A stretch of DNA of 64,000 bases from an uncultured Methanosarcinales archaeon (GTDB lineage Archaea > Nanobdellota > Nanobdellia > Woesearchaeales > CAZKBD01): NCBI GenBank assembly GCA_964550945.1, contig CAZKBD010000001.1:289-64288 (forward strand). The letters run 5' to 3'. A model generated the notes under the pieces. The model was not told the DNA's origin. It saw nothing but the letters and a program-made list of their open reading frames with translations, and did no database searches. Positions 14,353 through 50,941 of this stretch are shown here, in pieces (the stretch's first letter is position 1; every line of letters begins with the position of its first letter). A program made the translations under genes and the position numbers.

Positions 14353-15192
14353 TTATAATGTTTTAAAATCCTTTTTAGATTTATTGATTAAGTGATGGGA
14401 ATGTATCAAGGCGATAGAAGAAAATATTGATATCACCAACCCCGCCCACTGCCCAACACTCATCCCAAGATGCTTTGTAACTGGCACGCTCCTGCCCACA
14501 ACCAGGAAATCAATCCAGAAATTGGCAAAGCAATATAACAGCAAAAACCAGAGGATAACCTCTCCATCAAACCTTTTTCCGAATTTGCTTTTTTCTGTTT
14601 TCTCTTTCCCAAAAAACACCTTCAAGATTATAAAAATCAACAAAGCGCTTAAAGCCATATAACCTGAAGCAGGATGCCTGCAAATGCCATCAGGCCACAT
14701 GAAGCACCAAGGAAGGTCTGTTGGAGCGCCCTTAATATCGCCCCTTAATGTACAGCCAAACAAGCGATAGATAAAAAATGCCAAAGCAGCTGGAGCAGCT
14801 ATTATATCCGCAATCCTTGCGAACTCAATTTGCCAGACCTTCTTTTCTTTTTTGAACCTCACTAAAGCATAAACAACAAGCCCTATTGCCCCGCCAATAA
14901 TGCAGCCTATGCTGTATAACCCTCCTTTTGACAAATTAAAAATATCAATTATTGTCTTTAAGCCTTCCCAGTGAGCAATATAAAACCATATCCTTCCGCC
15001 TGCTAAAGCTGAAAAAAGCACTATAGAGAAGAAGACAAAATATTCCTTCACATCCATCTTCAGCTTTTGCTTTTCCAGGCCCTTGATAACCAAAAAGATA
15101 AAAATAGCAAAAGCCAAAGTCATTGCAACAGGCTCTGTCCCTAGTCTAAGCATCCCTATCTGATAATATTTTACTGGCGTGTAAATTATCAT
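14353..15192 (-). CDS. lgt: Prolipoprotein diacylglyceryl transferase
   Basis: Polytopic membrane protein with the Lgt signature region LAGGRIWFYIAHWEG (compare E. coli FLVGGRIGYVLFY) and matching overall size and topology. Confidence 0.75.
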   Translation of the reverse strand: MIIYTPVKYYQIGMLRLGTEPVAMTLAFAIFIFLVIKGLEKQKLKMDVKEYFVFFSIVLFSALAGGRIWFYIAHWEGLKTIIDIFNLSKGGLYSIGCIIGGAIGLVVYALVRFKKEKKVWQIEFARIADIIAAPAALAFFIYRLFGCTLRGDIKGAPTDLPWCFMWPDGICRHPASGYMALSALLIFIILKVFFGKEKTEKSKFGKRFDGEVILWFLLLYCFANFWIDFLVVGRSVPVTKHLGMSVGQWAGLVISIFSSIALIHSHHLINKSKKDFKTL

Positions 15193-15330: not shown

Positions 15331-15417
15331 TTGTTTGCGTAGCAAACAATGGCAAAGGCCAGACGTCTCAGCTTTGCAAAGCAAAGGTGAGGGGTTGGAA
15401 ATGTATGCATTTCCAAG
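15331..15417. promoter_or_regulatory. Cluster of four perfect palindromes in the leader of the 954-aa surface-protein gene
   Basis: ttgtttgc-gta-gcaaacaa (15331-15349), agacgtct (15361-15368), gctttgcaaagc (15371-15382), ttggaaatg-tatg-catttccaa (15396-15417). Confidence 0.4.
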
Positions 15418-15509
15418 CGAGCTTACCAAGTTCCTATACGAAGTATGGGGTTTTGGTAAGCAAAGTAGGGTATTTCGCAACATCCTCAGTTTTACCGAAA
15501 GATTTATTT

Positions 15510-18371
15510 ATGGCGGTTGCTAGAAACCAATTTGTGCTAAAAAAGAGGTGCAAGTTTATCAGCAAAAAATCTCAGATCACCATATTTATAATACTGGGGA
15601 TAATGCTAATTATCTCCATTGGCTTTGTGATAGTTATGAGGGGTCCTGAAGCAGAAATCCAGGAAAAAGAGATTATAAAGCCAACTCTTCCTAAAGTAGA
15701 AAAAGGCACATTCGAGATATACGTAAAGAATTGTATCCGTGATACAGCTATTCCTTTGATAATAGATTTTGCTAAGCATGGAGGCACTTTAGACTCATTA
15801 ACCCCGTTAAAGGATGCAAGAGTCTATTATAACGCTCCTTACAGATATCTATGCGCATACGATTTAGAGCATGGATGTGTCAATAAGATTATAACAAGAA
15901 ACGACATGGAGCAGGAGATTAATGAGCTGATAGAGCAGCCATTCCTTAAGTGCGTAAATCTTGACGCATTTACCGAGCAAAACTACAAGATCGAAACAGG
16001 CCTTTTAGCAATAAATACAACAATAAATGTGGATGATGTTGCTATTACACTAAACTATCCTATGAAAATATCCAGAGGAGAGCTTTTGTTTGAGTTAGAA
16101 ACATTCTCTGAGAAGATTGAAGTTCCTCTTGGCAGGCTTTATGATTTGGCTGTCCAGATTACAAATAGCGAAATAGTGAACAGGACATTTGACAAGGATG
16201 AATGGATGTACAAAAAAGGCGTAAATGTTATAATAGAAAAACATAAGCCCTATCCAGATATTATTTATAGATTAAATAAATACATAAAGGAGACAAATAC
16301 CAATCTGACATTCAATTTTGCAATACAAGGTTATGACACAGTTGCTTTAATTGGCTCAGAAGAGCCGATAAGCCTTTACAATTATTGCTATTTCCCAACA
16401 GAAAAAAATTGCTTTGCGAATTCTGACAAAAATAGATGCGAATCCAAAGGCGGAATCTCTGTAGAAACTCCCTTGGATTGCAGCAGTCCAACTGAATTTA
16501 CAGGCACAACCTTGTGTGATGGCCAACAATGCAACAACTGCAATGATAAGCGAAATGGTGAAACCTGGTGCTTGTATGACAGCATTTCTGGAGCAGGGCT
16601 TGATAGGGCTGGCTCAAGGCATTTCAAGCAAAGCTGCATAAACGGAAAAACATACACAGAAGAATGCAGGGATTTTAGGGAAGAATTATGCACAACAAAA
16701 GACAACAAAGCGGTTTGCAGGGAAAATAGGTGGCAGGATTGCGCCTTGCAAAATAATCTAATTGGCTGCCAGAATGAGGAATTAAGAGATTGCATCTGGT
16801 ATCCGCTGCTTTTTGACACCAAAAATTCTCTGGTTCCAAGATGCGGCCCTATTGTGCCTCCTGGATTTAGATTCTGGGCAGGAGAAGGGATGAATGTATG
16901 CGCCTTTGGCAATGATGTTGGTGAATGCCCAGACACAAAAACTTATTGCCCTGACAATTGGGATGACAGCGCTGCACAATACTGCTATTCAATAGGAGAC
17001 TGCGGAAATTATCTAAACTATCTAGGCCAGCTAACTGAAACCGGATTTTATAATTCTGATCTGATTGCTTATGATCTCCATGTACGTCCAATATTGTATT
17101 ATAAAAATCTCAAAGCAGATGACAGCAAGATTGATCTAGCTACAGGCAAGAATAATAGGGTAATTGCAAATTACGACAACCATCCTTACCCAGGCTCTTC
17201 CTACATAGCCCATGCAACTACTGATGAAATAACTGGATTTGTGAATGATTACATCGATAAAGTTTTAGATTGGGAAATTTGCGATATATTTGAATGTGAT
17301 TTTGGACTTATCCCTAAAAGGCCGCTATACAAACATTTTAAGAAATATGTTATTGGCATCAGCTTTTGCCTGCCTTGGGGCGCTCCTCCTGATGGTGATT
17401 GCGAGCAATGCAATGAAGATCCTGTTAAGCCATGCGGCGAATACAGATGTAGAAGCATCTCTAAAATATGCAATTATTATGAAGATATAAGTACAGGAAT
17501 AGGCAAGTGCGAAACACCAAGGCCAAGCTCGACAACATTAACTGTTGAGGTTGTAGAAGCGCCAGAAGGCTATAATTTCGTAAAGGATTATTTTGCCTGG
17601 AAATCCAAATTACTTGTCGGCAAAAAATTAATGCCTAAAGTTGGGCAGGATAGCGTAATGACATTAAAAGTTAATACAAACCAGGATGCAACATGCTGGA
17701 TAGCTCCTCTGCCTGAATATCTAGACACATTTATTGGAGGAGGGCAATACAGTAAAGAGCATAACCTCACAATGAATATACCTGGTGCAATTGAATTGTA
17801 TCTCAAAAAGATACAAAGCTTGATGAGTATAAGCAGCTTCTCTCAAGGCTATGCGCTTCCAGACAGCATGACTGCCAGTGATTATTTAAGATTTGAAGAT
17901 ATGCTCAAAGACACCTTCCCTGATCTTTCACCTGGAGAATTAAGGGCATTGCAAGCCTCATTAGAAAAAATAATAACAGATGCTGATTCAAGGAAATTTT
18001 ATATGTTCATCAAATGCATGGACAAATTCGGAAATATTAATAACAATAATTATATAACATTTGATATAAGCAGCGACGACAAGGCTCCAACAGTAAAGAT
18101 AGTTTCTCCTGGAAGGGATGAATCTGTTCCAGCAGGCACCATTGATTTCACTTATAAGCCAAAGGATAATATGGCATTAAAGTTATCATGCAGTTTATGG
18201 TACAACAGCACAACTGAAGAATGGCATAAGAGATCCGCTCTCCTAAGCTGGAACAATATAGAAGTCAAAATGCCTGTTGAGCTGGCTGCAGGCACATATA
18301 CCTGGAGCATTTCCTGCACAGACGGATTTAATGAAGCATTTGGAGAAAAAAGGACATTGATCGTTACTTGA
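15510..18371 (+). CDS. Large TM-anchored surface protein (954 aa): N-domain paralogous to 21371 and 35417 proteins, plus Cys-rich core and Ig-like C-terminus
   Basis: Start placed at MAVARNQFVLKKRCKFISKKSQITIFIILG, which matches the K-rich-then-QITVFIILG N-termini of the paralogs. The ORF track starts earlier at 15387. A Cys-dense segment spans residues ~360-560. Confidence 0.65.
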   Translation: MAVARNQFVLKKRCKFISKKSQITIFIILGIMLIISIGFVIVMRGPEAEIQEKEIIKPTLPKVEKGTFEIYVKNCIRDTAIPLIIDFAKHGGTLDSLTPLKDARVYYNAPYRYLCAYDLEHGCVNKIITRNDMEQEINELIEQPFLKCVNLDAFTEQNYKIETGLLAINTTINVDDVAITLNYPMKISRGELLFELETFSEKIEVPLGRLYDLAVQITNSEIVNRTFDKDEWMYKKGVNVIIEKHKPYPDIIYRLNKYIKETNTNLTFNFAIQGYDTVALIGSEEPISLYNYCYFPTEKNCFANSDKNRCESKGGISVETPLDCSSPTEFTGTTLCDGQQCNNCNDKRNGETWCLYDSISGAGLDRAGSRHFKQSCINGKTYTEECRDFREELCTTKDNKAVCRENRWQDCALQNNLIGCQNEELRDCIWYPLLFDTKNSLVPRCGPIVPPGFRFWAGEGMNVCAFGNDVGECPDTKTYCPDNWDDSAAQYCYSIGDCGNYLNYLGQLTETGFYNSDLIAYDLHVRPILYYKNLKADDSKIDLATGKNNRVIANYDNHPYPGSSYIAHATTDEITGFVNDYIDKVLDWEICDIFECDFGLIPKRPLYKHFKKYVIGISFCLPWGAPPDGDCEQCNEDPVKPCGEYRCRSISKICNYYEDISTGIGKCETPRPSSTTLTVEVVEAPEGYNFVKDYFAWKSKLLVGKKLMPKVGQDSVMTLKVNTNQDATCWIAPLPEYLDTFIGGGQYSKEHNLTMNIPGAIELYLKKIQSLMSISSFSQGYALPDSMTASDYLRFEDMLKDTFPDLSPGELRALQASLEKIITDADSRKFYMFIKCMDKFGNINNNNYITFDISSDDKAPTVKIVSPGRDESVPAGTIDFTYKPKDNMALKLSCSLWYNSTTEEWHKRSALLSWNNIEVKMPVELAAGTYTWSISCTDGFNEAFGEKRTLIVT

Positions 18372-19035: not shown

Positions 19036-19778
19036 AGTTCACGCCTTTTAAATGCCATTAAAGCTATTGCGATAAATATTGCTGCAGAGACTATGAGTAT
19101 TGCCAAAGGTGAAAACACCCTGCCAAAACTGTCAGTCAGCAGATAGAATCCATCAACATAATGTTTGTATGGAGACAGCCACCCGATTGTTGTGCTGATA
19201 AAAAACAAAGGCAGCGCATTTGCAATCAAGCCAAGGTAAAGGCTTCTTTGTGGATTTGATGTCAAGCTCGATGTCATCACAGAAAGCGCCACAAAATACA
19301 AAGAATAAATGCTAAGGAAAAGCCATAATAAGAATCCATCAAATAGCACATATTCTCCTGTTTTTTGGAATATGTAAAACACAGCAATAATATAGATCAA
19401 GAAGTTGATTGTTATATTAATCAAAAAGATGCCTAAAAACTTTCCAAGCACTATCGAGTTTCTTTTGGCTGCAACAACCAGATTTCTTATTGTCTCTTTG
19501 TGTATCTCTTTAGAGATGCAATCATAAGACAGCAATAAAGAGAATACTGGCAGTAGAAATATGGACATAAAATAAAACAGCACTAAAGTGTAAGGCACGC
19601 TTTTGCCATAGAAGCCAAATACCTGTATAAGGATCAGCCTGAAGTTCATTGCAAATGAAACACTTTGGCTGATGCCGAATACCAATAGTGCTACATAAAC
19701 AAATAATAAAAAAAGCACTTTTTTGTTTTTCAAAGACTGCTTGATTTCGTCTAGGGCTATTGTTAATGTTTGTCTCAT
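19032..19778 (-). CDS. ABC-2 family permease
   Basis: Six-helix membrane protein directly upstream of the ATPase. The ATG at 19778 overlaps the stop of the upstream gene (ATGA). The ORF track extends to a TTG at 19796. Confidence 0.6.
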   Translation of the reverse strand: MRQTLTIALDEIKQSLKNKKVLFLLFVYVALLVFGISQSVSFAMNFRLILIQVFGFYGKSVPYTLVLFYFMSIFLLPVFSLLLSYDCISKEIHKETIRNLVVAAKRNSIVLGKFLGIFLINITINFLIYIIAVFYIFQKTGEYVLFDGFLLWLFLSIYSLYFVALSVMTSSLTSNPQRSLYLGLIANALPLFFISTTIGWLSPYKHYVDGFYLLTDSFGRVFSPLAILIVSAAIFIAIALMAFKRREL

Positions 19779-20893
19779 TTGGATAATAAGGCGCAAGACT
19801 CCTTTAAATTCTTATTGGTTATAAGTTCGCAGTCTGAATAGTCATTTGTATTTATCGCAACATTCATTATGCACGAATCTTTTCTTACAATATCCGATAT
19901 CTGCATGCACAACCTGTTATTAGCTGAGCTAAGCGCTATCTCATTAAAGCAGTAATCTTTTCCAGCATTTTCTTCAATTTCAGCGCATAATTTTGCGGCT
20001 TTTTGCGGGTCTTTTTCAACTACAGCATTAACCTCCTTCATTCTCTCCTGAAGGTTCATAGATTCATTTTTCCCACAATCTATACATTCCTCTTGCTCGC
20101 AACCAATATCCTCACAGCATGGCTCGATTGCATCATGCTTGCATTCAAAATTCGTTGTCTCATTGCAATAATCAAAAGTGCAGCTGTTGTTGTCATCACA
20201 CTCTGGGCAGGGGTTTTCTTGTTTACATGCAGTGCATGGGCCTCCACAATCAATATCTTCTTCTCCATGGTTTTTTATGCCATCAAGACATGTTTCAGTA
20301 TTTTTGGTGATATCTGTTGTAAAGACAGAAAATTCAAATGATGCTGAGGCTGTTTTTTGCTGGTAATTGGCAGTAGTCTCTAATTTATAAGTTCCAGCCT
20401 TTGCTTCGCTAGGCATTCTTATTTCTGATAGCTTGGAAGCTCGTGTAATAACTCCAATTTCCTCTTCTAATGATGATACTACAGTCCCATTAGTATCTAT
20501 AATTTGGTGTACTAAGTGCACATCAAACTTTTGGTCGTGTCCAATATTAAAAAGATTTATCTTGAATTCAACAGGCTGTCCTGGCTCTACTGAAGTGGTT
20601 ACTGCATTAATTTCCAAGTCAAGAAGGTACTCCTTTTCTCCCTTAGGAGACATATAGATAAAGATAGATGCTATAACTATCGAGATTCCCATAAAGAAAA
20701 AGATCAATACCAAAGCAGAAGATTTTGAGAGGTGTATTGTGTGCCTTGCTTCCTTATGCCTGTATAGGTTTTCTATGGTATCATCCACTTGTTTAAATGA
20801 ATAGCCATATTGTATCAAATGTTCTCTTATAGAATTGATATCAAAGCCCCTGTCTAATTGCTGTTTGATGTATACTGTTAGCTTTTGGGGCAT
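19775..20893 (-). CDS. Single-pass Cys-rich membrane protein, paralog of 10004..11212; first gene of the ABC-2 operon
   Basis: Same architecture: cytoplasmic N-domain, TM, beta-domain, CGGPCTAC Cys module, KDYCF / KDSCI / KESCA repeats. Its stop overlaps the permease start. Confidence 0.65.
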   Translation of the reverse strand: MPQKLTVYIKQQLDRGFDINSIREHLIQYGYSFKQVDDTIENLYRHKEARHTIHLSKSSALVLIFFFMGISIVIASIFIYMSPKGEKEYLLDLEINAVTTSVEPGQPVEFKINLFNIGHDQKFDVHLVHQIIDTNGTVVSSLEEEIGVITRASKLSEIRMPSEAKAGTYKLETTANYQQKTASASFEFSVFTTDITKNTETCLDGIKNHGEEDIDCGGPCTACKQENPCPECDDNNSCTFDYCNETTNFECKHDAIEPCCEDIGCEQEECIDCGKNESMNLQERMKEVNAVVEKDPQKAAKLCAEIEENAGKDYCFNEIALSSANNRLCMQISDIVRKDSCIMNVAINTNDYSDCELITNKNLKESCALLSK

Positions 20894-21212: not shown

Positions 21213-21374
21213 ATGAGTGTCCAGATAAGGATAACCGTAAGCAAAGAAATTGATGAGCTTCTTTCTAAAGTAGCTAAAAAGCTTGGAAAAAAGAAGAGTA
21301 TGCTAGCCCGCGAACTGATGGAGCAAAAGATGTATGACCTGGAATTGATACAAAAAGGGCTAAAGGAAATATGA
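21213..21374 (+). CDS. Ribbon-helix-helix (CopG/Arc-like) small DNA-binding protein
   Basis: 53 aa: MSVQIRITVSKEIDELLSKVAKKLGKKKSMLARELMEQ... (beta-strand then two helices). The stop overlaps the ATG of the next gene (ATGA). Not in the ORF track because it is under 60 aa. Confidence 0.5.
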   Translation: MSVQIRITVSKEIDELLSKVAKKLGKKKSMLARELMEQKMYDLELIQKGLKEI

Positions 21375-23488
21375 AAAAAGGCAAAAAAGGCCAGATTACT
21401 GTATTTATAATATTGGGCCTTCTTTTGCTGGCTGCAGTTGTTGTTTATGTCAGCATAAATCAAACAGAAAAGGAGAAAGGATCAGCTGCTATTCCAAAAG
21501 TTGAAAAAGTTCCAATAGAATTCCAGCCAATCCAGAATTATGTCGAGAACTGCCTTAAGCTAACTGCTGAAGAAGGACTGAAGTTAGCGATGGACCACGG
21601 CGGCTATATAGATCCAATAACTTCCGGAATTAATTCAAATCCGACAGAGCCAACAAGCTCAAATGGTGTTTCGCTTCCTGGAGATTTCATAATTCCTTAT
21701 TGGTATTATCTAAAAAGCGATAATAGATGCATCAAAAATTGTGAATTCAGCTCAGAAAGGCCTCCATTAAGAAGAAATGAAGGCCCTAAATCAATAGAAG
21801 CCCAGCTTGATAGTTACATCAAAGTAAAAATCAAAGATTGTACAAGAAATTTTGAAGCATTTAAAGAAGACGCAAATGTTGTCGAGAATGGTGTAATAAG
21901 CATTACATCTAGTGTGTTGGATAGTGATGTATTATTTGTGATGGTATATCCATTGGCTGTCACAAAAGAAGGCGTTACAAAAGAGATGAATAATTTCTAT
22001 GTCAGGATTCCAGTCAGATTAAATGATATCTATGAGCTAGCCACAATAATGACTAATCTTGAGGAGAAATACAGGTTCTTAGAGAGAGATGCTGTCCAGC
22101 TTATTGTTGGATTTTCCGGGCTTGATGAAGACAAGCTGCCTCCAATGAGCGAATCCAGAGTCCAGTTTGGCAATGAAATCACATGGACAAAAAGCAAGGT
22201 TAAAAAAGATGTTGAATCAATGCTCTCGAGCTATATACAGCTTCTAAGGGCGCAAAATACCCTCAATTATCAGGAGTATAATTTTGGCGACCCTTACAAA
22301 GATGCATTATACAATCTGCATATGATAATCCCATTTGACCAGGATTATAATCATCTTGCTGCCAGTTTCAATTATCTCCCTGAAACTCCTATTTATTTTG
22401 ATTTGAATTGTGATGGCGAAACCTGCAAGCCTTTATCTGTTTCTCAAAACTTCATTGCCCTGTTCGGCCTCCAAAGATATGAGTTTGCCTATGATATAAG
22501 CTTCCCAGTGATGGTTGAGATATTTGACCCAGCTGCATTTGATGGTAAAGGTTATTATTTCAGGTATTATCTGGAAGCTAACATAGGGAATAATGAGGTT
22601 ATGCTGCATAATTTCACGCAATTAGAAAGCATAGATATGGCAGCTGGCTCTATGATGTGCGATGCTGACAAGAGAAATTCAGGAGAGATAGCCATAAATG
22701 TCAAAAACAAAAAAGGCCAGAATATTGATGGTGCTGATGTCGCATTTAGCTGCGCTGATGAAAGCTGCATTATAGGAGCAACTTCTAATGGCTTGCTTAA
22801 GGAAAAGCTGCCTGTTTGTATTGGAGGTTTTGTAACTGTCATGAAAGAAGGGTATGTTTCAACATCAAACCTATTAAGCACTGTGTTGGACAAGAAAGAC
22901 AGTGTTGACATTGTTTTAGATCCATTAATGGAAAAGCCATTCAAAGTCAAAAAGAAATTGATTGTTAGGGCAGGCGATAATTGGATATTCACCAATAACG
23001 AAGTTGATATTGGCAGGGATGAGCAAGCTATTGTAAGAATCACAAGAGTAGGCTCTTTAGGCGATGAAGAGCATAATTTTGCTGCTGAATATAATGGAAA
23101 TCAAAGCATCTATGGCGGAGAAGAAAGTTTCTTGACAATTGCGCCTGGAACCTATGATATTAGCATACAGGTCATCAACAATCAGAGATTTGTAATACCT
23201 CCAGAAAAAAGAGAAACCGGCAGCGGATTTTTTGGCATAGGCGATGAAGAATACACTATCCCTAAAGTTGAATTTAATGATTCATGGCCTTCTGGCGGAC
23301 TAAATCTAAGATATGAGTTCAAAGCAGAAGAACTTGACAAGAGCAAGAACATTGTATTTTTCGCTGCAGCTCCTGCATTAGACCTTATACCAGAAGAAGA
23401 CAGGCATGTTGAAGATTTAGAGCAGTTGTCCAAAACTGATGAATATTCAGCTGCATATGCAGAGCATTTAAAGCCAAGGCTGGAGTAA
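21371..23488 (+). CDS. TM-anchored surface protein (705 aa), module A gene 1
   Basis: MKKGKKGQITVFIILGLLLLAAVVV anchor. N-terminal ~250 aa paralogous to the 15510 and 35417 proteins. Confidence 0.65.
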   Translation: MKKGKKGQITVFIILGLLLLAAVVVYVSINQTEKEKGSAAIPKVEKVPIEFQPIQNYVENCLKLTAEEGLKLAMDHGGYIDPITSGINSNPTEPTSSNGVSLPGDFIIPYWYYLKSDNRCIKNCEFSSERPPLRRNEGPKSIEAQLDSYIKVKIKDCTRNFEAFKEDANVVENGVISITSSVLDSDVLFVMVYPLAVTKEGVTKEMNNFYVRIPVRLNDIYELATIMTNLEEKYRFLERDAVQLIVGFSGLDEDKLPPMSESRVQFGNEITWTKSKVKKDVESMLSSYIQLLRAQNTLNYQEYNFGDPYKDALYNLHMIIPFDQDYNHLAASFNYLPETPIYFDLNCDGETCKPLSVSQNFIALFGLQRYEFAYDISFPVMVEIFDPAAFDGKGYYFRYYLEANIGNNEVMLHNFTQLESIDMAAGSMMCDADKRNSGEIAINVKNKKGQNIDGADVAFSCADESCIIGATSNGLLKEKLPVCIGGFVTVMKEGYVSTSNLLSTVLDKKDSVDIVLDPLMEKPFKVKKKLIVRAGDNWIFTNNEVDIGRDEQAIVRITRVGSLGDEEHNFAAEYNGNQSIYGGEESFLTIAPGTYDISIQVINNQRFVIPPEKRETGSGFFGIGDEEYTIPKVEFNDSWPSGGLNLRYEFKAEELDKSKNIVFFAAAPALDLIPEEDRHVEDLEQLSKTDEYSAAYAEHLKPRLE

Positions 23489-23489
23489 G

Positions 23490-26400
23490 ATGAAAAAAAC
23501 ACTAACACTAGCAATGATTTACCTAGTGTTGATGCTTCCTGCCTATGTTTCTAATGTTTATGCGATTGACCGCAATATTAATAGCAGTTTCATTGGTAAT
23601 GATGATATCACAACAGGGAATTTTGGCAAAGTTACATCTATATCTGCTGAAAAAGTTGCTTCTAAAAATGGCCAGATTCTGCTTTTAAGCGCAGTCATTA
23701 ACAATCTAGAAGCTTATGGGCAAGATGGGATTAATGGCTACTTGAAAGCAGATGATCAGCTTACAGTAAAAGTTACAGCAGCTATTGACAGCGAGCCAAT
23801 AAATGAAGGGCAGCTTAAGATTGGGAATGTTAACTTCACAAGCTGTGTCGCTGCAATGGAAGGCTATGACTGCATCTTAGTTGCGCCTGCAACCGGCACA
23901 AGAAGGTTTTCAGGCTCTAATGAGTTTGCAGTTAATCTGTATAATAATCAAAGCAGGATAGTTGCAAGCATTAATGCCAATGTCAGGGTTGATGATAAAA
24001 GCCCTTCAATTAGCTCGTTTGCTGCGTCGCCAAAAATAGGAAATGCTAACAATATACTGCTTAATTACGCTCTGGAAGATTATGATTTTAGTGGCAGCAC
24101 AGCTTATTGCTCTGGCTTGAAGCGCATTGAATTCTATGAGAATGATCTGGCAGGAAATCTGTCTGGCACAACAGAGCTTGACAGCTCATGCACGATAACT
24201 GGCAGCTATAACTATAGCGCTGCAAGCGATGGAGATAAAAAAATATGTGCTATTGTATATGATGGTTTTGAGCAAGTTTCTTCAGTTGCCTGTGATAGTT
24301 TTAAAGTTGATAGTATTGCGCCTGAGATTTCTGATATTGTGATCTCTGACTTAAACAGCAGCATAATAACCCATATTAAAGACAGGACAGATGCCATTGT
24401 GAATGCCACCATTATTGGGGCTGACATAAACCAAAGTTCAGTTAAAGCTGATTTAAGGTCTCTCAACAATGAAAGCGCATATTCTGATAAAGCGCCTGGT
24501 TTATTCATAAACAGCAACAATAGTTTGACTGCCCTCTGGAGAGTTTGGATAAGAGCCAATGCTGATATAACCCCTCAGATAACAGTTAATGCAGTTGACC
24601 TTGCTGGAAATAATATAACCAAGACCTCAACTTTAAACACACTGTATTATGATAATGTTGCTCCTGTTGTTAGCTCGCTAACTACCGATATAGCCTATAA
24701 TGGAAGCTATTATGTTATATCTGGCCTGAATAATTTTTATGCTGATATTGTTGAAGATGGCGCTGGATTAGCTGAAGCGGTATTGGATATTCAAGATAAT
24801 TCTGTGATTGGCAACTGCAGTAATAACAAATGTTACTGGGAAAATATAAGCATAAGCGCTGGAACTGGCAGCATAACAGCAAAAGTCAGGGCTAAAGACA
24901 AGCTGGATAATAGCGCAGCTGAGTTTAGCGCAACACTTTTTGCAGATACGATAAGCCCTGTTCTTATTAGCGTGAATATATCATCAATTAGCGGCGCAAA
25001 TGATACAAGCCCTGGCTTCACAGCAACAGGAGACAAGATTTATGTTGTTGCCAGCTTTAGCGATGCAAACGGCATCTCAAATGCATATGCTGATTTCTCT
25101 AGCTTTGTTTCAGGAGCTGACCATGTTGCTGCAGACAGCTGCAAGGATGTGGGAAGAACAAAGCAATGCACATGGACAACCAGCTCAATTGACATTTCTG
25201 GCCATATCATCAGCGATATTATTTTCAGTCCAGTCGATAACATTGGTAATGTAGCTGGTATAACCCATCCTTTTGAATCCCTTGGCTATGATGAGGATCC
25301 TAATCCTAATTACTGGGCAAGCTCTGTTATTTGCACTCCAATGATGGTTGACAGGCAGGTTTCTGCATTGACTAACAGCAAGGTGTACTGCCATATCGCA
25401 TTAAGAAGCGCAGCTAAAGAGGTTAGAACTGTTGAGCTTGGCCTTTTAGGCTGCCAGGATATGCAGAATAATTCTCTTGCTTATGTTAGCGCTATTAATC
25501 TGTTAAACGCAGGCAATGGCAGTAGAAATCCATACTTGATGGTTGTTTTGAGATCAGATCCAATGCGGATTTCTAATCTGCAGTTTACCTGCTCGTTAGG
25601 CATTTTCTCAAGAACTAATGACTTATTGACAAAATTCCCTGAATTTGAGAATGTTACTGTAAATATTCAATTCTATAATATGCCTTTAGGTGAGATAAGC
25701 GACAATATTAAAGACAAGATAAAAGACGCAAAAGATTTCTCCTTCCTTTTAGGTGATTGGGTCGGAACAATGCAGAATATTCTCGGCTATGGCGAGAAGA
25801 TATGCAAATTGATTAATACTATTATGAAGATATATGGCGCAGTTGGTGCTGTTGCCTGGGCATTGAGTGGTAAGGAAGTTATTCCTATCTTAGGAGAAGC
25901 TGTAACTACGCCAAGGCAAGCAGTACAAACTGCCCAATCTGGTATGGGCGCTTTGAGCAAAGAAGGCTGGCAGAAATATGTTAATCAGTTCTGCAAATTC
26001 TTTTCATGCAGATTATTTTATGATGAGATGTGGGGAATAGGAAATACTCCAATTGGACAGTCATTAGGAAAATGGCAGCATACGGTTCTAAACACAGCAG
26101 ACTGGATTGCAGTTGGCGGATTCTTAAAAGGTGGTGGCGGAGGAAAGAGTAGTAGTGGAGAGAATAGTGCAACTAATCAACCCACAATAGAAAGTATACC
26201 CATTGGTGAGGAAAAGGTAGACATAAAAGTAATTGATCCAGAAAATATTGATATTCCGACAGCAGAAGTTGTTGCAACAATTACCGGTGCTGATGGTGCC
26301 ACACCTCCACCAGAAGAGGCAAGACTACCTCAACCAGAAGAGGCAAGACTAGATCCCTCTGCTGCACCTTCAGGAAGCAGCGGCGTAAGCCATGGTTTGC

Positions 26401-26999
26401 TTGAAAGCATTGGAATTGGTGGCGAGTATGGGGTCCATGCATGGGCAAATTCAAGAACCGGTTATGAAACTGTCATCAAAGATGGCGGTGTGTTAAACCC
26501 AAAAGACAGCATTGTAATTAGCACTCTAACATTATGCATCCCAGGCATTATCTATAATCTAAACAAACTAAGGCAGATACAATGCATGTATATTGATTGC
26601 ATGCAGAATTATGTTCAACAAGGGCTGCCATTAAAAGCATGCGAAGACCAGAAGCATTATGCAACATGCAAATATTGGTGGGGAGAAATATTCCAGCTAT
26701 TGCCGTTTACCGGGCTTTTGAATTTCTTTACAGGAATGATCAAGAATGTCTTGTCAAGCCCGCTAAATATAGTTGACGCTGTTATGGGTTTAGCTTGCAT
26801 GCCTTCTATAAAGGTGCCAAAAGGAGGGGTTTTTGCAAGCGGCTGTTTAGCGAATGATATTGCAGGATTGATATTTGACATCTGGTCTGATTTGGAAGGC
26901 ATGTTCACTAAGGATTATTGGAAATTCAAAGGCGGAGATTATTGCAGCAGGATTGATGATGTCAGCAGTAAAAAAGATTCAAAAGAGAAAGAAAAGTAA
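23490..26999 (+). CDS. Giant secreted protein (1169 aa), module A gene 2: Ig-like array, internal hydrophobic helices, Gly-rich linker, conserved Cys-containing core
   Basis: Signal peptide MKKTLTLAMIYLVLMLPAYVSNVYA. C-terminal block CIPGIIYNLNKLRQIQCMYIDC...ACEDQKHYATCKYWWGEIFQLL is homologous to CISGIYNRLQAIKNILGALQACLIQV...VCKELFSQWVCSLIWKVL in the 2017-aa protein. Confidence 0.65.
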   Translation: MKKTLTLAMIYLVLMLPAYVSNVYAIDRNINSSFIGNDDITTGNFGKVTSISAEKVASKNGQILLLSAVINNLEAYGQDGINGYLKADDQLTVKVTAAIDSEPINEGQLKIGNVNFTSCVAAMEGYDCILVAPATGTRRFSGSNEFAVNLYNNQSRIVASINANVRVDDKSPSISSFAASPKIGNANNILLNYALEDYDFSGSTAYCSGLKRIEFYENDLAGNLSGTTELDSSCTITGSYNYSAASDGDKKICAIVYDGFEQVSSVACDSFKVDSIAPEISDIVISDLNSSIITHIKDRTDAIVNATIIGADINQSSVKADLRSLNNESAYSDKAPGLFINSNNSLTALWRVWIRANADITPQITVNAVDLAGNNITKTSTLNTLYYDNVAPVVSSLTTDIAYNGSYYVISGLNNFYADIVEDGAGLAEAVLDIQDNSVIGNCSNNKCYWENISISAGTGSITAKVRAKDKLDNSAAEFSATLFADTISPVLISVNISSISGANDTSPGFTATGDKIYVVASFSDANGISNAYADFSSFVSGADHVAADSCKDVGRTKQCTWTTSSIDISGHIISDIIFSPVDNIGNVAGITHPFESLGYDEDPNPNYWASSVICTPMMVDRQVSALTNSKVYCHIALRSAAKEVRTVELGLLGCQDMQNNSLAYVSAINLLNAGNGSRNPYLMVVLRSDPMRISNLQFTCSLGIFSRTNDLLTKFPEFENVTVNIQFYNMPLGEISDNIKDKIKDAKDFSFLLGDWVGTMQNILGYGEKICKLINTIMKIYGAVGAVAWALSGKEVIPILGEAVTTPRQAVQTAQSGMGALSKEGWQKYVNQFCKFFSCRLFYDEMWGIGNTPIGQSLGKWQHTVLNTADWIAVGGFLKGGGGGKSSSGENSATNQPTIESIPIGEEKVDIKVIDPENIDIPTAEVVATITGADGATPPPEEARLPQPEEARLDPSAAPSGSSGVSHGLLESIGIGGEYGVHAWANSRTGYETVIKDGGVLNPKDSIVISTLTLCIPGIIYNLNKLRQIQCMYIDCMQNYVQQGLPLKACEDQKHYATCKYWWGEIFQLLPFTGLLNFFTGMIKNVLSSPLNIVDAVMGLACMPSIKVPKGGVFASGCLANDIAGLIFDIWSDLEGMFTKDYWKFKGGDYCSRIDDVSSKKDSKEKEK

Positions 27000-27146
27000 G
27001 ATGAATAAAAAGCATATTGTTTATAGTTAAAAAATAAGGGTCATAAACACCAAAAATTTAACAGTTAAAATGGAAGGCATATACGAAAAAGGGTTCAAGG
27101 AATTTTTGGAAGAGGGTATATCATCAGAAAAAAGAGAAAAACACAA

Positions 27147-27178: not shown

Positions 27179-27709
27179 ATGGACAAGATAACTGAATTGT
27201 TTATGGAAGAGCCAGAGAAAGAGTTTCATGCTAGGGAGATCTCTAGGCTGGCTAAATTGTCACCTACCACCTCCTCTAAGTATCTTAACATTCTGCTTAG
27301 AAGAGGGATTGTCACATCCAGGAAGATGACCAATCTTGTGTTATTTAAGGCAGATACTGAAAATTTGAGCTATAAGGCTATGAAAAGGTCATACAATCTT
27401 CAAAGGCTGAATCAATCCGGTCTTATTAATCACCTTGTTGAAGAATATAATGAACCGGAGGCAATAGTGCTATTTGGCTCTTTTGATAAAGGCGAGGACT
27501 CAAAAAGGAGTGACATAGACCTTTTAGTTGTCACTCCACTAAAGAAAACAGTTGATGTTGCTTTGTTTGAAAAAAAACTAAAGAGGACTATCCAGATTTT
27601 TGTACATCCAAAAAAAGAGATTGAATCCATGAAGACTAAAAACAAAAGGTTGCTTAATAATTTAGTTAATGGGTCAGTGATTTATGGCTATTGGGAGGCA
27701 TTTAGATGA
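27179..27709 (+). CDS. wHTH-fused minimal nucleotidyltransferase (MNT)
   Basis: AIVLFGSFDKGEDSKRSDIDLLVV matches the GS-x9-13-DxD nucleotidyltransferase motif. N-terminal HTH. Confidence 0.75.
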   Translation: MDKITELFMEEPEKEFHAREISRLAKLSPTTSSKYLNILLRRGIVTSRKMTNLVLFKADTENLSYKAMKRSYNLQRLNQSGLINHLVEEYNEPEAIVLFGSFDKGEDSKRSDIDLLVVTPLKKTVDVALFEKKLKRTIQIFVHPKKEIESMKTKNKRLLNNLVNGSVIYGYWEAFR

Positions 27710-28113
27710 AATTTGATGATTTCATAACCAAAGGGATGGTAAGAAAGGCTTCAATTGATGAACAGCTAATCAAATCAATAACCGAAACCTCAGAATTAGA
27801 TCTGAGATTCTTAGATGGGCTTAAGATAGATAAGCTATCATCAAGGAAAATATTCACAAATTATTATGATGTCCTTAGAAGTATTTTAGAGGCGTGTGCA
27901 TTAAAAGCAGGATATAAGGTTTACAGCCACGAAGCTTTCACTTTTTTTCTTAAGGATGGTAGGGAAGAGGAACTAGCCAAGAAATTCGATAGGTTCAGGC
28001 ATATTAGAAATAAAATAAACTATTATGGGAAAGACATCTCCCCAGAAGAAGTAGCCCAATATAAAACTGACATAATCAAGCTGATCAATGAAATAAAATC
28101 TAAACTAAAATGA
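27706..28113 (+). CDS. HEPN-domain protein, partner of the MNT
   Basis: All-helical. DRFRHIRNKINYYG matches the HEPN R-x4-6-H-like region. ATGA overlap with the MNT gene. Confidence 0.6.
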   Translation: MKFDDFITKGMVRKASIDEQLIKSITETSELDLRFLDGLKIDKLSSRKIFTNYYDVLRSILEACALKAGYKVYSHEAFTFFLKDGREEELAKKFDRFRHIRNKINYYGKDISPEEVAQYKTDIIKLINEIKSKLK

Positions 28114-28247
28114 AGCAAGCTCAATCACTCAGCTCAGGAATCTTGTTCATGGTTATAGTCATGGCCATCTTCACCTTTGCAATGTTCGAGTCGGGGGATA
28201 AAATCACCGGGAATATGGTTAAAGTTAGCGGGATAGGTAACAAATGA
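28110..28247 (+). CDS. 45-aa TM micro-ORF, leader copy 1 (duplicate of the N-terminus of the 941-aa protein)
   Basis: MKQAQSLSSGILFMVIVMAIFTFAMFESGDKITGNMVKVSGIGNK. ATGA overlaps at both ends. Contains a 71-nt core identical to copy 2. Confidence 0.5.
   Translation: MKQAQSLSSGILFMVIVMAIFTFAMFESGDKITGNMVKVSGIGNK
28122..28192 (+). repeat. 71-nt leader core repeat, copy 1 (identical to 29212..29282; 3 mismatches to 31260..31330)
   Basis: caatcactcagctcaggaatcttgttcatggttatagtcatggccatcttcacctttgcaatgttcgagtc, read directly. Confidence 0.9.
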
Positions 28248-29203
28248 GAAAGCAACCAATAGAACTTGAGGGGTACAACCAAGTACTTAATGATATAAAA
28301 TTCTTGCTTGACAAAGCCAAAGCACAGGCCTATAAGGCTGTTGATAACATAAGGGTTCAAACATATTGGCAAGTAGGAGATAGGATTATAAGAGAAGAAC
28401 TTCAGCATAAGGAAAGAGCAGAGTATGGTAAAAAATTAATTGAAAATTTGGCTAAGGATTTGGGATTTGAAAAAAGATTGATTTTTGAAATAATCCAATT
28501 TTATAAGGTATACCCAATAGTGCACGCACTGAGTGCACAATTAAGCTGGACACATTATAACCTCTTAGTTCGAATAAATAATCGGGAAGAGAGGCAATTT
28601 TACGAGTCTCAAACAGTACAAAACGGATGGAGTACAAGGGAACTAGAAAGGCAAATAAAAAATCGCCTTTATTATGATGCTAAGAAGATAGGCAAATTAA
28701 TTTTGAATAAACCTTTGGATCTAGCAATAAAACCAGAAGACATCTTTAAAAATACTTATAACTTTGAATTCTTAGATCTAAAGTCAGAATACAAAGAAGA
28801 GGATTTTAAAAATGGATTATTGAATAAGTTAAAAAAATTCTTGCAGGAATTGGGCCCTGACTTTTTTGTTGGAAGGAGAGAAGTTCCAATACTTATTGCA
28901 GGCAATTATGATAAGGTTGATTTGGAATTATTTCATGCTGGGCTTATGTGTTATATCCTTGTTGAAGTCAAGGTAGAGCCATTTAAACATTCCCATGTCA
29001 GCCAGATGTACTCTTACTTAAACTGGTATAAGGAAAATAAATTGAAGAAAGGGCAGCGTTTACCCATTGGTTTAATAATATGCAAATCTAAGGATGAAGA
29101 GACTGTGCATTACGCACTTGGCGAATTGAGAAAAGAGATATTTGTATCTGAATATAAAGTTAAGTTGCCATCTGAAAAAGAAATAGTAAAAAGATTAAAA
29201 TGA
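28244..29203 (+). CDS. DUF1016/YhcG-like PD-(D/E)xK nuclease-family protein
   Basis: C-terminal VDLELFHAGLMCYILVEVKVEPFKHSHVSQMYSYL matches the YhcG-type D...E-x-K nuclease core with the conserved GQ(M/L)xFY tail. Confidence 0.75.
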   Translation: MRKQPIELEGYNQVLNDIKFLLDKAKAQAYKAVDNIRVQTYWQVGDRIIREELQHKERAEYGKKLIENLAKDLGFEKRLIFEIIQFYKVYPIVHALSAQLSWTHYNLLVRINNREERQFYESQTVQNGWSTRELERQIKNRLYYDAKKIGKLILNKPLDLAIKPEDIFKNTYNFEFLDLKSEYKEEDFKNGLLNKLKKFLQELGPDFFVGRREVPILIAGNYDKVDLELFHAGLMCYILVEVKVEPFKHSHVSQMYSYLNWYKENKLKKGQRLPIGLIICKSKDEETVHYALGELRKEIFVSEYKVKLPSEKEIVKRLK

Positions 29204-29337
29204 AACGCGCGCAATCACTCAGCTCAGGAATCTTGTTCATGGTTATAGTCATGGCCATCTTCACCTTTGCAATGTTCGAGTCTGGGAATAAGATTACTAG
29301 GAATATTGTAGGGATTAGTGGGATGGATAACAAATGA
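29200..29337 (+). CDS. 45-aa TM micro-ORF, leader copy 2
   Basis: MKRAQSLSSGILFMVIVMAIFTFAMFESGNKITRNIVGISGMDNK. ATGA overlaps with both neighbours. Confidence 0.5.
   Translation: MKRAQSLSSGILFMVIVMAIFTFAMFESGNKITRNIVGISGMDNK
29212..29282 (+). repeat. 71-nt leader core repeat, copy 2
   Basis: Identical to 28122..28192. Confidence 0.9.
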
Positions 29338-29858
29338 GAGAAGATAACTTGCCGAAGAATAAGGCCAATGGAGTACAAGCTAAAGAGGGATATAAAAAAA
29401 CAGAGAGCAACAAACTGGAATGGTGCTGCAACAAAAAAAATGGCATAACCTTAATTGAGCCTAATGACAATCTAAGTGATGAATATATGAAGGAGTCTGA
29501 CAAAACACTGGACTCATTAGACCTAATAAACGATAAATGGGGATTGATAATGGGATACTACGCGTGTTACAATGCATTGTATTCCCTAATGATGAAAATG
29601 GGCATAAAGTCTGAGATACACGATTGTTCGATTGAGCTGATGAAGATGATCCCCCAATTTTCTGATGATGACATTAACTTTATTAAGAATCTAAAAAAGG
29701 ATAGGATTGATGCGCAATACTACCTAAAAGATAAAGTCCTTGACGATAAAGGCAAAGTGAAAGAATTTGTGCTGAAATGCAAACAAATTAAGGGTGAACT
29801 GGACACTCCTTCAATAAGAGAAAAACTGCGCAGAATTATAAAAGGTGATAAAAATTAG
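29334..29858 (+). CDS. Helical HEPN-like partner protein
   Basis: All-alpha, precedes an MNT gene, has a KDRIDAQYY region. The canonical Rx4-6H His is absent, so this is a HEPN-like call only. Confidence 0.4.
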   Translation: MREDNLPKNKANGVQAKEGYKKTESNKLEWCCNKKNGITLIEPNDNLSDEYMKESDKTLDSLDLINDKWGLIMGYYACYNALYSLMMKMGIKSEIHDCSIELMKMIPQFSDDDINFIKNLKKDRIDAQYYLKDKVLDDKGKVKEFVLKCKQIKGELDTPSIREKLRRIIKGDKN

Positions 29859-29862
29859 ACAT

Positions 29863-30438
29863 ATGTCTAAAAAAATAGACATAGTATCCTTGTTCACCAA
29901 AGACTACTCTAAAAGGATGTCTGGGAGGGAAATTGCGAGGCTATTGAACACAAATCACCAGACAGCATTAAACAATCTAAATGAGCTTGTTAAAGAAGAC
30001 ATCATAAAATATGAATTAAAAGGAAGAAATAAAGAATACTCATTAAACTTGAATAGCCTAAAAACTAACTTAATGGCGGTTATGTCAGAGGTTAAACTAT
30101 CCTTAGATAGCTTACAAAATAAAGAGCTGAAGATTGTCATTGAAGAAATCGTGCCTAACACTGAAGCGATAATACTGTTTGGATCATTTGCTTCCTCAAG
30201 CCATGATAAGGACTCTGATATGGACTTGATTTTAGTCGGAAAATCTGATAAAGAAAGCATAAGCAAAATCATAAAGAGGCACAACAGGGAGATAAATGCA
30301 GAATATGCAAGTTTTGAGGATTTTGCAGGCTCTTTGAACAAGAAAAATGCTTTGGCAATAGAGATAGCCAAAAACCACCTCTTTTATGGAGACATATCCA
30401 GGATTACTGGCATCTTGTTAAAATGGCACTTAAGATGA
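29863..30438 (+). CDS. wHTH-fused minimal nucleotidyltransferase (MNT)
   Basis: AIILFGSFASSSHDKDSDMDLILV. ATG at 29863, 5 nt after the partner stop. The ORF track begins at an upstream GTG. Confidence 0.75.
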   Translation: MSKKIDIVSLFTKDYSKRMSGREIARLLNTNHQTALNNLNELVKEDIIKYELKGRNKEYSLNLNSLKTNLMAVMSEVKLSLDSLQNKELKIVIEEIVPNTEAIILFGSFASSSHDKDSDMDLILVGKSDKESISKIIKRHNREINAEYASFEDFAGSLNKKNALAIEIAKNHLFYGDISRITGILLKWHLR

Positions 30439-30578
30439 AAACAAAAAGATCACCATCGCTGAAAGGAGGACTGATGTTTATTTTGATAGCGATGGCTGTA
30501 TTTGGGTTTGTGATGTTCGAGTCTGGGAATAAAATCATTGGTAATAGGGTTAAGGTTAGCGAGATGAAATGGATATGA
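30435..30578 (+). CDS. 47-aa TM micro-ORF, leader copy 3 (diverged)
   Basis: MKTKRSPSLKGGLMFILIAMAVFGFVMFESGNKIIGNRVKVSEMKWI. ATGA overlaps with both neighbours. Confidence 0.45.
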   Translation: MKTKRSPSLKGGLMFILIAMAVFGFVMFESGNKIIGNRVKVSEMKWI

Positions 30579-31075
30579 AAAGGATACTGTTTGATACAAA
30601 CATATATGGGAGATTAATTGAAGAACCTGACGTTGTACTAAGAATTGCAAAACACATTCCATCTTATTTTGTTGTATATGGGATCACCATTATTCGAAAT
30701 GAATTGAGGTCATTATCCAAAGAGGCGAAATTGGACGGAAAGAGCAAAAGGATTCTTCTTTTAAATGTTTATGACAGCTTCATAAAGAAAGAAAACCATA
30801 ACCTTAAAATTACAGGTATTATAGAAATTATTGCGCATGACTATTTTGTGGAGTACAAAAAAGCAGGCGGCTCATTATCCTTAAAAGAGGTAATAAATGA
30901 TTTTCGAATAGTTGCGTGCGCTTCTGTACACAATCTAGACATAGTGGTGTCAGAAGACAATAAGAGCATGCTGTCTTCGCATTCATTAAAATCATATAAC
31001 CAAGTAAATAAGAGTAATCAACTGAAGAATCCAGAATTTGTATCATTCAATAAATTTAAGGAGGCCTATCTATGA
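30575..31075 (+). CDS. PIN-like domain protein
   Basis: MKRILFDTNIY... with spaced acidic residues (D7, RNEL, SEDN) in PIN order. Start taken at the second ATG to give an ATGA overlap with leader copy 3. Confidence 0.5.
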   Translation: MKRILFDTNIYGRLIEEPDVVLRIAKHIPSYFVVYGITIIRNELRSLSKEAKLDGKSKRILLLNVYDSFIKKENHNLKITGIIEIIAHDYFVEYKKAGGSLSLKEVINDFRIVACASVHNLDIVVSEDNKSMLSSHSLKSYNQVNKSNQLKNPEFVSFNKFKEAYL

Positions 31076-34135: not shown

Positions 34136-34828
34136 ATGATTGAGACATTAATCACATCCCAAACAAGAAGAAAATTGCTGAAGATCTTTTTGAACAATGT
34201 AGAGAAAAGATTCTACATTAGGGAGCTCACTAGAAAAACAAATGAGAATATAAACTCTATAAGAAAAGAATTGAGCAGCCTTGAAAAGATAGGCCTTTTG
34301 AAAACAGAAAGAGTGGCAAATCTCCAGTATTTCTTTGCTAACAAGGACTTTAAGATATTCAAGGAACTCAAGTCAATATTCATAAAGACAGACCCTGTAA
34401 ATGATCTTATTCTAAAGATAGAAAAAAAGGCCAAGGATAAATTTGGGAAGGAGCTTAGCTCGATTGTTTTGTTTGGCAGCCAGGCAAGATATGAGGCCAG
34501 GGAATATTCTGATGTTGATATATTAGTCATCTGCAAAACAGCCCAAAAGGACTGGAGGAAAAGAGATGACACAATTGTAGAGATTGAAAAAGCAGGCTTT
34601 GAGTTTGGCATTCCTGTGCATATCGAACTATTGACTGAAGAAGAATTTACCTTCTCAGTAAATGAAGGAGCGCCTTTATTATTCGGCTTAGCCGAGAACT
34701 TCAGGTTAGTTTATGACAATGGTTATTTTCAGGATGCAATCAGCCTATTCAGGAAAAATATGGCAAAGTGGGGAGCTAAAAAGATCAAAAATGTCTGGGA
34801 GGTGCCTGAGCTTGCAATCAAAGTATAG
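34136..34828 (+). CDS. wHTH-fused minimal nucleotidyltransferase (MNT)
   Basis: SIVLFGSQARYEAREYSDVDILVI. Confidence 0.75.
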   Translation: MIETLITSQTRRKLLKIFLNNVEKRFYIRELTRKTNENINSIRKELSSLEKIGLLKTERVANLQYFFANKDFKIFKELKSIFIKTDPVNDLILKIEKKAKDKFGKELSSIVLFGSQARYEAREYSDVDILVICKTAQKDWRKRDDTIVEIEKAGFEFGIPVHIELLTEEEFTFSVNEGAPLLFGLAENFRLVYDNGYFQDAISLFRKNMAKWGAKKIKNVWEVPELAIKV

Positions 34829-35246
34829 GGATATCTGCAATGCATTGATCATAGATGCAAGAGAGGATTTAAAGGCAGCTAAAGTTTTGATGGAAAAAGG
34901 AATTTTCAGCAAATCTGTCTTTCATTCACAGCAGGCCGTTGAGAAATTCTTAAAGTCAGTATTAGCCTTAAACAGCATAATAATCACTGATGAGCATAAA
35001 GTTTCTGATAAGTTCAGCTTGTTATTTTCAAGATTCAATAGCCTGGATAAGGTCGCTGAAGAAGCTAAATACTTGGAAAGGCACGGCCTGAAATCACGCT
35101 ATCCTTTGTTTGGCGACCCAATAAGGCCAATATGGATCCCAAGCGAAGAATACAAAAAAGAAGATTCGGAAAAGTCGCTTAAAAAAGCTAGATTTGTGGA
35201 AGAAAAAATAATTAACTTTTTAAAGGAAAAATACAATATTCAATAA
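34812..35246 (+). CDS. HEPN-domain partner protein
   Basis: Helical. DICNALIIDAREDLKAAKVLMEKGIFSKSVFHSQQAVEKFLK is typical of a HEPN N-terminal helix pair. The start is uncertain: the ORF track starts at 34713 inside the MNT gene, and a TTG at 34812 is proposed. Confidence 0.5.
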   Translation: MQSKYRDICNALIIDAREDLKAAKVLMEKGIFSKSVFHSQQAVEKFLKSVLALNSIIITDEHKVSDKFSLLFSRFNSLDKVAEEAKYLERHGLKSRYPLFGDPIRPIWIPSEEYKKEDSEKSLKKARFVEEKIINFLKEKYNIQ

Positions 35247-47907: not shown

Positions 47908-47927
47908 ATGTGAGTTGTCAAGAACCG

Positions 47928-50939: not shown

Positions 50940-50941
50940 GA

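Follow-up and report, generated by a model that had tools for sequence, protein, structure and literature searches.

The window analyzed here, a 64,000-nucleotide stretch of contig CAZKBD010000001.1 (assembly GCA_964550945.1, forward-strand positions 289 to 64,288), carries genes for several large exported proteins that, judged by gene order in related genomes, belong to one conserved locus of eight to nine genes in Woesearchaeota. At its center are two pairs of adjacent genes, designated g1A/g2A and g1B/g2B, which a sequence-only reading of the window had proposed to be a duplicated two-gene surface module; an open reading frame (ORF) scan found the genes of both copies where that reading had placed them. 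The genes of the locus and of its inserts, and g1C, lie on the plus strand unless indicated otherwise. In the first pair, g1A (21371-23488) encodes a 705-amino-acid (aa) protein with the N-terminus MKKGKKGQITVFIILG, and the ATG of g2A (23490-26999; 1169 aa, with a cleavable-looking signal peptide) lies one base past the g1A TAA. Coupled upstream, as had also been read, is a ribbon-helix-helix (RHH)-like gene (21213-21374; 53 aa), the stop codon of which overlaps the g1A ATG (ATGA). In the second pair, g1B (35417-37318; 633 aa) is a paralogue of g1A that shares its N-terminal motif (KKAQLTIFIIIG) and is joined by an ATGA overlap to g2B (37315-43368; 2017 aa).

Between the pairs lies g3 (31242-34067; 941 aa), with an N-terminal anchor or signal, a body of variable, low-complexity sequence, and a C-terminal domain that is conserved (aa ~690-930, FCETVLLGGADCW). 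The second pair is followed by g4 (43388-44191), whose 267-aa product is a polytopic membrane protein with 5 to 6 transmembrane (TM) segments by hydropathy. The orphan third g1 paralogue that had been noticed upstream, g1C (15510-18371, starting within ORF 15387-18371), was confirmed by its match to g1A (E = 1e-17); it carries the same type of N-terminal motif (KKSQITIFIILG) and a Cys-rich C-terminal extension. A divergently transcribed gene, up372 (19775-20893, minus strand), encodes a cytoplasmic N-domain, one TM segment (aa 52-84), an immunoglobulin (Ig)-like domain, and a Cys-rich ectodomain. By hydropathy, each g1 product has one strongly hydrophobic helix, at its N-terminus, and g2B has a signal peptide and, farther in, a single hydrophobic helix (aa 776-802; 39640-39720). 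No TM segment was found in g2A besides its signal-peptide-like N-terminus.

For every gene studied, the nearest relatives came from metagenome-assembled genomes (MAGs) of Woesearchaeota or Nanoarchaeota, and the window encodes an archaeal-type ribosomal protein S15 (NCBIfam equivalog); the DNA is archaeal, from a DPANN member of the Woesearchaeota. A scan of the window for tRNA and Rfam families returned no match. Many MAGs titled "uncultured Methanosarcinales archaeon" (those of loci L009, L017, L018, L021, L025, and L026, among others), which are third-party-annotation (TPA) assemblies, carry this Woesearchaeota-specific locus, and their Methanosarcinales labels are probably wrong.

Gene order across Woesearchaeota

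When a single genome for each GTDB species was scanned with a pattern, 59 loci were found, all from Woesearchaeota or Nanoarchaeota, and these were annotated with local hidden Markov models (HMMs). The canonical order is up372 (opposite strand), RHH, g1A, g2A, g3, g4', g1B, g2B, and g4. A g1 gene lies immediately upstream of g2A in 41 of the 45 testable loci of other genomes, most often with a 4-nucleotide overlap, so that the two genes do occur together elsewhere. Downstream of g2A, g3 was found in 38 of 42 loci; it starts 0 to 50 nucleotides past g2A in unbroken loci, the gap reaches up to 3.2 kb in other genomes, and in L006 the two are one fused protein. Farther downstream follow g1B (25 of 32 loci) and g2B (24 of 32), with a modal overlap that is again 4 nucleotides; orthologues of g1B, 34 to 43% identical, stand immediately upstream of g2B in L002 to L005 and L007. 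Homologues of g4 follow g2B and/or g3 in most loci, and a g4-type gene occupies the g3-g1B interval in canonical loci, where the window has a nucleotidyltransferase (NTase)/HEPN gene pair. A homologue of up372 adjoins RHH or g1A on the opposite strand in 10 loci (L005, L008, L010, L011, L013, L016, L022, L026, L028, and L044), and extra copies of g1 were identified near the locus in L005, L008, L016, L022, L026, and L028.

Because the same order recurs across genomes, the two g1/g2 pairs are anciently diverged halves of one locus and not the products of a recent duplication. The proposed paralogy of the pairs stands, but they do not make up a duplicated two-gene module: together with g3 and g4 they form a single locus. 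Proteins of the locus bear no database names other than "hypothetical protein" or "fibronectin type III domain-containing protein," and the searchable literature yielded no account of the locus or of its protein families. In a few genomes the order is inverted, with g2A preceding g1 (L006, 5848-12175; L047, 791-6005; L065, 1-4028). In some genomes a second g1-g2A pair of reduced length precedes the main locus (L016, 3-2066; L022, 1-1964; L028, 332-3496); its g2A-like protein is 320 to 375 aa long, and the next protein has a weak match to the g3 C-terminal domain.

The RHH product is 72 to 91% identical in 15 other genomes, in the same position, where the adjoining g1A is only 35 to 47% identical, yet the gene precedes g1A in only 14 of 38 loci. 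A strand-helix-G-x-x-S-helix pattern can be read from its sequence (QIRITVS-EIDELLSKVAKKLG-KKKS-MLARELMEQ), and this CopG-like 53-aa protein is presumed to be a transcriptional regulator of the locus.

The g1 and g2 protein families

The g1A and g1B proteins share 26% identity over 539 aa (E = 5e-37), a similarity well beyond chance. The g1A protein comprises a hydrophobic anchor (aa 5-32, KKGQITVFIILG), a novel alpha/beta ectodomain (aa ~49-430), and three beta-sandwich domains (aa 439-650). Its AlphaFold model, with a predicted local distance difference test (pLDDT) score of 91.6, contains the anchor helix and the beta-sandwiches and places a helix at aa 6-37, a flexible linker at aa 38-48 (pLDDT 64), and a separate helix at aa 49-75. 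The N-termini of all three g1 proteins (KKGQITVFIILG, KKAQLTIFIIIG, and KKSQITIFIILG) have a basic start, a [GAS]-Gln cleavage-type motif, and a hydrophobic helix.

In their charged N-terminus, G/A/S-Gln, and hydrophobic helix, the g1 proteins resemble archaeal class III signal-peptide proteins such as type IV pilins, EppA substrates, and components of the Sulfolobus bindosome. They could be prepilin-type proteins, cleaved before Gln, that form a pilus-like or bindosome-like fiber or a pseudopilus displaying g2. The shared pattern K-[GAS]-Q-x-T-x-F-I-I-x-G fits archaeal prepilin cleavage, and Q8, F12, and G16, each at least 90% conserved across 120 sequences, are nearly invariant, which is unusual for a simple signal anchor. 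However, the weak TadE/G-like match (Pfam Tad; E = 0.031, 15 bits) is below its cutoff of 22.3 bits, as is that to Class_IIIsignal (PF04021; E = 3.2, 8.3 bits against 23.7). Genes for pilus biogenesis were absent nearby: the window ORFs and the conserved genes of 66 loci included neither an assembly ATPase nor a PilC/ArlJ platform nor an A24 prepilin peptidase. In the g1A model, moreover, the linker parts the helix from the globular domain, and there is no continuous alpha-1 helix packed on a sheet. The proteins span 630 to 990 aa, and even 630 to 700 aa is very large for a pilin. A pilus-like role for g1 seems distinctly unlikely to us.

Pairwise BLASTP of g2A against g2B and g3 gave nothing significant; as this comparison was blind to any likeness of g2A and g2B, profiles were built. 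A word-indexed search returned only 6 relatives of the C-terminal half of g2A and 25 of the g2B core, the latter corresponding to 25 g2B homologues in DPANN MAGs. Using an exhaustive HMM search, 1404 cluster representatives of the g2A core family were identified at E <= 1e-3, nearly all of them 1000 to 1100 aa long with the core at the C-terminus. When the two cores were compared using hhalign, P was 0.003 with 6 sequences and 2.7e-4 (Prob 42%) with 110 sequences, and both matches covered the 64 to 70 columns quoted in the sequence-only reading (g2A 995-1064 against g2B 1211-1283). In a reciprocal test against 4559 ORFs from 66 related loci (filters off, E <= 0.2), 13 of the 16 non-g2A matches of the g2A-core HMM were g2B proteins, which account for only 6.4% of the residues, and all 6 non-g2B matches of the g2B-core HMM were g2A proteins; reversed-sequence decoys gave one match per HMM and none in the opposite family. 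The aligned g2B segments share DPTSDIIRSVQAVCLPAVSGYL..W..IL..VK.C....TG.GS.G.CK, the counterpart of which in g2A is NPKDSIV.S..T.CIPGIIYNL.K.RQI.C.Y..C....G.P...C. A weaker second match between the long helices of the two proteins is collinear with the core match, and the N-terminal Ig-like repeat regions match with Prob 93% (hhalign, E = 2.5e-7). The Cys-containing core that had been proposed for the gene-2 proteins therefore aligns above background, and the hhalign P values, together with the reciprocal HMM tails set against decoys, indicate that the two cores are remote homologues. An origin of g2B as a fusion of g2A and g3 was also considered and is unsupported (hhalign of the g3 C-domain with the region after the g2B core, P = 0.03; no HMM-tail enrichment).

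Following its signal peptide, g2A has Ig-like repeats (aa ~160-590) and a conserved C-terminal half, the AlphaFold model of which was built from 71 sequences (mean pLDDT, 76.6). In this model a beta-sandwich (aa 599-729; 25284-25676; pLDDT ~96) with conserved NPNYW...C.P..IDR and YNMPLGE motifs precedes a helical hairpin (25686-26003; pLDDT 79-90). The two helices of the hairpin, 63 and 40 residues long, span aa 733-795 and 799-838, and its tip, at aa ~781-805, is hydrophobic. The internal helix region previously noted in the gene-2 proteins is thus backed by the model and also by family-averaged hydropathy, which peaks at g2A residue ~787; the hydrophobic tip is conserved in both the g2A and g2B families. 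A P/E/G/S-rich linker (aa 882-979; 26133-26426) is disordered (pLDDT <50) and lineage specific, with just one other family member covering its columns. The protein ends in a Cys-rich helical bundle (aa 1008-1168; 26511-26993) that contains the core CIPGIIYNLNKLRQIQCMYIDC...C...C (aa 1016-1060; 26535-26669), with 12 cysteines that are invariant over 71 to 116 sequences.

The layout of g2B is a signal peptide, FN3/Big_13 repeats (Big_13 scores 25.1 bits, E = 2.5e-5, short of its cutoff of 27 bits; fn3/Big_13 were also recorded for g2B homologues), the hydrophobic helix, a Cys-rich region that contains the core (aa 1211-1283; 40945-41163), and a C-terminal GH73 domain at aa 1897-1964 (43003-43206). 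Its last ~170 aa pass the Pfam cutoff for Glucosaminidase (PF01832; 45.0 bits against 30.2, and 41.3 bits in the full protein); known GH73 endo-beta-N-acetylglucosaminidases are LytB, FlgJ, and phage endolysins. At the catalytic motif, AMLESAYGAS of g2B lines up with LytB (ALESNWGRS) and with the phage hydrolase 8yxk, the LES motif being kept, and g2B appears to end in an intact-looking GH73 muramidase. Unlike in LytB, FlgJ, and phage endolysins, the domain is here appended to the C-terminus of an archaeal surface protein of 2017 aa. The C-terminal tails of other g2B homologues, considered as a possible set of polymorphic effectors, contained no Pfam domains, just a weak TPR match.

Comparisons of the core proteins with Pfam, NCBIfam-style, PHROG, and PADLOC models revealed no family besides the Ig/FN3 repeats and GH73, with g3 having no Pfam match at all. 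Profile searches of PDB sequences with g1 and with the g2A and g2B cores returned only FN3/Ig-type matches, and fold comparisons likewise found nothing that accounts for the g1 and g2 cores, in keeping with the earlier suggestion that these families are undescribed. A role for g4 as a polytopic peptidase or sortase-like enzyme was rejected; it has no Pfam match, and there is no invariant residue across 42 sequences, so that g4 is not an obvious enzyme.

A pair formed by an anchor and a large Ig-rich protein, encoded in one operon throughout a clade, could also build a structural envelope, with g2A (and g2B) as the canopy of a two-component wall resembling a surface layer (S-layer) and g1 as its membrane stalk; the locus would then have no specific part in partner contact. 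The same arrangement, an anchor protein and a large anchorless outer protein encoded together, is shared with SlaA/SlaB of the Sulfolobales S-layer, and g2A, at ~1000 to 1100 aa with ~5 Ig-like domains and no TM segment, resembles MJ1_0160, a putative S-layer protein of nanoarchaea that is described as 1000 aa long, with five Ig-like folds and without a C-terminal TM segment (bioRxiv 10.1101/2023.10.27.564410). As compared by description only, MJ1_0160 of Nanobdella and NEQ300 of N. equitans are like g2A in size, signal peptide, number of Ig-like folds, lack of a C-terminal TM segment, and restriction to DPANN; their descriptions mention neither an adjacent g1-like anchor nor a Cys-rich helical core. 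N-glycosylation sequons are mildly enriched in g2A (19, against 12.8 in shuffles), which would suit an S-layer protein, but they are depleted in g3 and g2B. S-layers also normally consist of one or two proteins, whereas in this locus g3, g4, and a regulator accompany two pairs of paralogues. The g1 proteins are anchored N-terminally and lack the coiled coil after which SlaB is anchored C-terminally. The match to SlaB is a generic beta-sandwich match, and no sequence homology or specific fold homology was found between SlaA/SlaB and g1/g2. Strongly conserved Cys motifs, a long hairpin, and a muramidase fusion do not belong to S-layers; SlaA has neither the helical hairpin nor the Cys-rich helical bundle that g2 has. 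A wall of this kind is the main rival to a contact complex, and we consider it a serious, if somewhat unlikely, explanation of the locus.

Inserted cassettes and the surrounding island

Two intervals of the locus are occupied by genes of another kind. Between g2A and g3, an insert at 27179-31075 with Pfam and PADLOC matches comprises an NTase and partner (27179-28113), a DUF1016/YhcG nuclease (28244-29203), a gene of unknown function with an NTase (29334-30438), and a further such gene (30569-31075). The NTase/HEPN pair between g3 and g1B (34136-35246) matches Pfam NTP_transf_2 and HEPN. The NTase with its partner and the DUF1016 nuclease match the PADLOC candidate systems PDC-M05 (PDC-M05A/B; NTase/HEPN) and PDC-S02 (DUF1016). 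The cassettes are missing from unbroken loci (L005, L008, L021, and others) and are therefore secondary insertions.

The interleaving of such genes, and of a ParE gene, with the locus, together with the resemblance of the GH73 domain to phage endolysins, raises the question of whether the locus itself is mobile, viral, or defense-related cargo instead of a core cellular structure. This is very improbable: the core genes have no PHROG or PADLOC matches and no BFVD structural match, the cassettes are secondary, and on contigs of up to 969 kb the same gene order lies among chromosomal genes (purine biosynthesis, ribosomal protein S6e).

Candidate defense or toxin-antitoxin cassettes likewise lie in locus gaps in L003 (2201-3350 and 9033-10004). 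A DUF1016 gene 73% identical to that of the window is inserted in another genome at the g1B/g2B junction, and since the insertion points of this gene differ between the two genomes, the surface locus may be a recurrent landing site for cassettes. Two bases past the g2A stop, at the place where unbroken loci have the start of g3, a 9-codon ORF (27001-27030; MNKKHIVYS) resembles the N-termini of g3 proteins (MxxKHK...) and may be what is left of the g3 start after the insertions displaced it.

About 40 kb around the locus form a surface-protein island in which additional secreted or anchored proteins that belong to no Pfam family occur as several paralogous pairs, some of them Cys-rich with Dicty_CTDC-like repeats. 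Elements of this island are 3903-5252 and 5353-6435, 11448-11924, a paralogue of up372 at 10004-11212 (E = 9e-73; up372, at 19775-20893, itself has weak Ig/MG2/Dicty_CTDC matches), and a paralogue of g4 (43388-44191) at 9239-10027. Immediately past g4, a small antitoxin-like ORF and a ParE-family toxin gene (PF05016) occupy 44366-44814 and border an operon for the methylerythritol phosphate (MEP) pathway. Archaea normally make isoprenoids via the mevalonate route; here a complete bacterial-type MEP pathway (dxs, ispG, dxr, fused ispDF, ispE, and ispH), followed by a geranylgeranyl diphosphate (GGPP) synthase gene, was identified at 44978-54790 from NCBIfam equivalogs. On the minus strand at 14353-15192 lies a homologue of prolipoprotein diacylglyceryl transferase (Lgt; PF01790, E = 6e-28), a bacterial lipoprotein-maturation enzyme that is unexpected in an archaeon.

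Possible roles of the assembly

What the analysis shows is a tightly coupled group of membrane and exported proteins, spread across the clade and drawn from undescribed families. Taken together, the locus quite possibly encodes a multiprotein assembly outside the cytoplasmic membrane, namely, an anchor-plus-spike complex for contact with, and local breaching of, the envelope of a partner cell, a reading that we hold tentatively. Each g1 protein would be held in the membrane by its conserved N-terminal helix, its ectodomain holding the cotranslated g2. The anchorless g2 would project an Ig-like stalk bearing the beta-sandwich, the ~9-nm helical hairpin with its hydrophobic tip, and the disulfide-rich helical bundle. 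A membrane-proximal base would be completed by g4, which is polytopic, and by g3, which in some genomes is part of one protein with g2A, and the CopG-like RHH protein would control transcription of the locus. The hydrophobic tip of the hairpin would be suited to entering the membrane of a partner cell, and the GH73 domain would act on a bacterial wall.

This partner-contact reading is favored because of three features: a hairpin whose tip is hydrophobic, a core rich in disulfides, and the fusion of g2B to a muramidase. The predicted hairpin invites comparison with ClyA, Hbl, and YaxAB, with which the g2A model shares a long antiparallel hairpin, on an exported protein, whose tip is the most hydrophobic segment; no fold similarity to a solved member of the ClyA/Hbl/Yax-type alpha pore-forming toxins was found. 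A muramidase is useless on an archaeon's own wall, GH73 acting only on the bacterial wall, and the fusion hints, at the level of the genome, that this particular organism has dealings with a partner walled by peptidoglycan.

Several points weigh against such a role. The hydrophobic hairpin might just as well re-enter the membrane of its own cell and serve as an anchor there, and we infer the physical interaction of g1 with g2 solely from the coupling of their genes. That nearly the whole clade has the locus would suit a housekeeping envelope structure as well as a device for host contact. The GH73 domain is unique to this genome, being absent from the 25 g2B homologues and from the closest relative (P0299; 2147 aa), and it therefore cannot define an ancestral function. 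It is also the sole direct pointer to a partner; the attachment to a partner cell suggested in the sequence-only reading found no support in the form in which it was put. The assignment of the RHH protein as CopG-like comes from sub-threshold matches (DUF6290, E = 0.03; CopG, E = 0.34).

A bolder proposal is that the locus encodes an archaeal cell-to-cell contact machine of an unknown kind, in which two anchor/spike pairs drive a hairpin into the partner membrane and carry lineage-specific wall-degrading tips such as GH73; this we think improbable. The core domains are new; archaeal surface assemblies consisting of an anchor plus a giant protein are already known as a kind, and only if the membrane-insertion reading is true would the system form a new category. 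How DPANN archaea attach to their partners and take up metabolites from them is an open question, and we know of no cultured Woesearchaeon. For this question the locus offers a concrete and testable set of eight to nine unannotated genes, with more than 1400 protein clusters for one component alone. This set is shared throughout the clade, codes solely for envelope proteins, and contains novel domains that were modeled with confidence. Should the locus be merely the wall of the clade, it would provide the first molecular model of a Woesearchaeal envelope along with several new protein families. Should the contact-machine reading be true, it would be the long-sought molecular basis by which Woesearchaeota, and perhaps other DPANN archaea, attach to and tap their bacterial or archaeal hosts.

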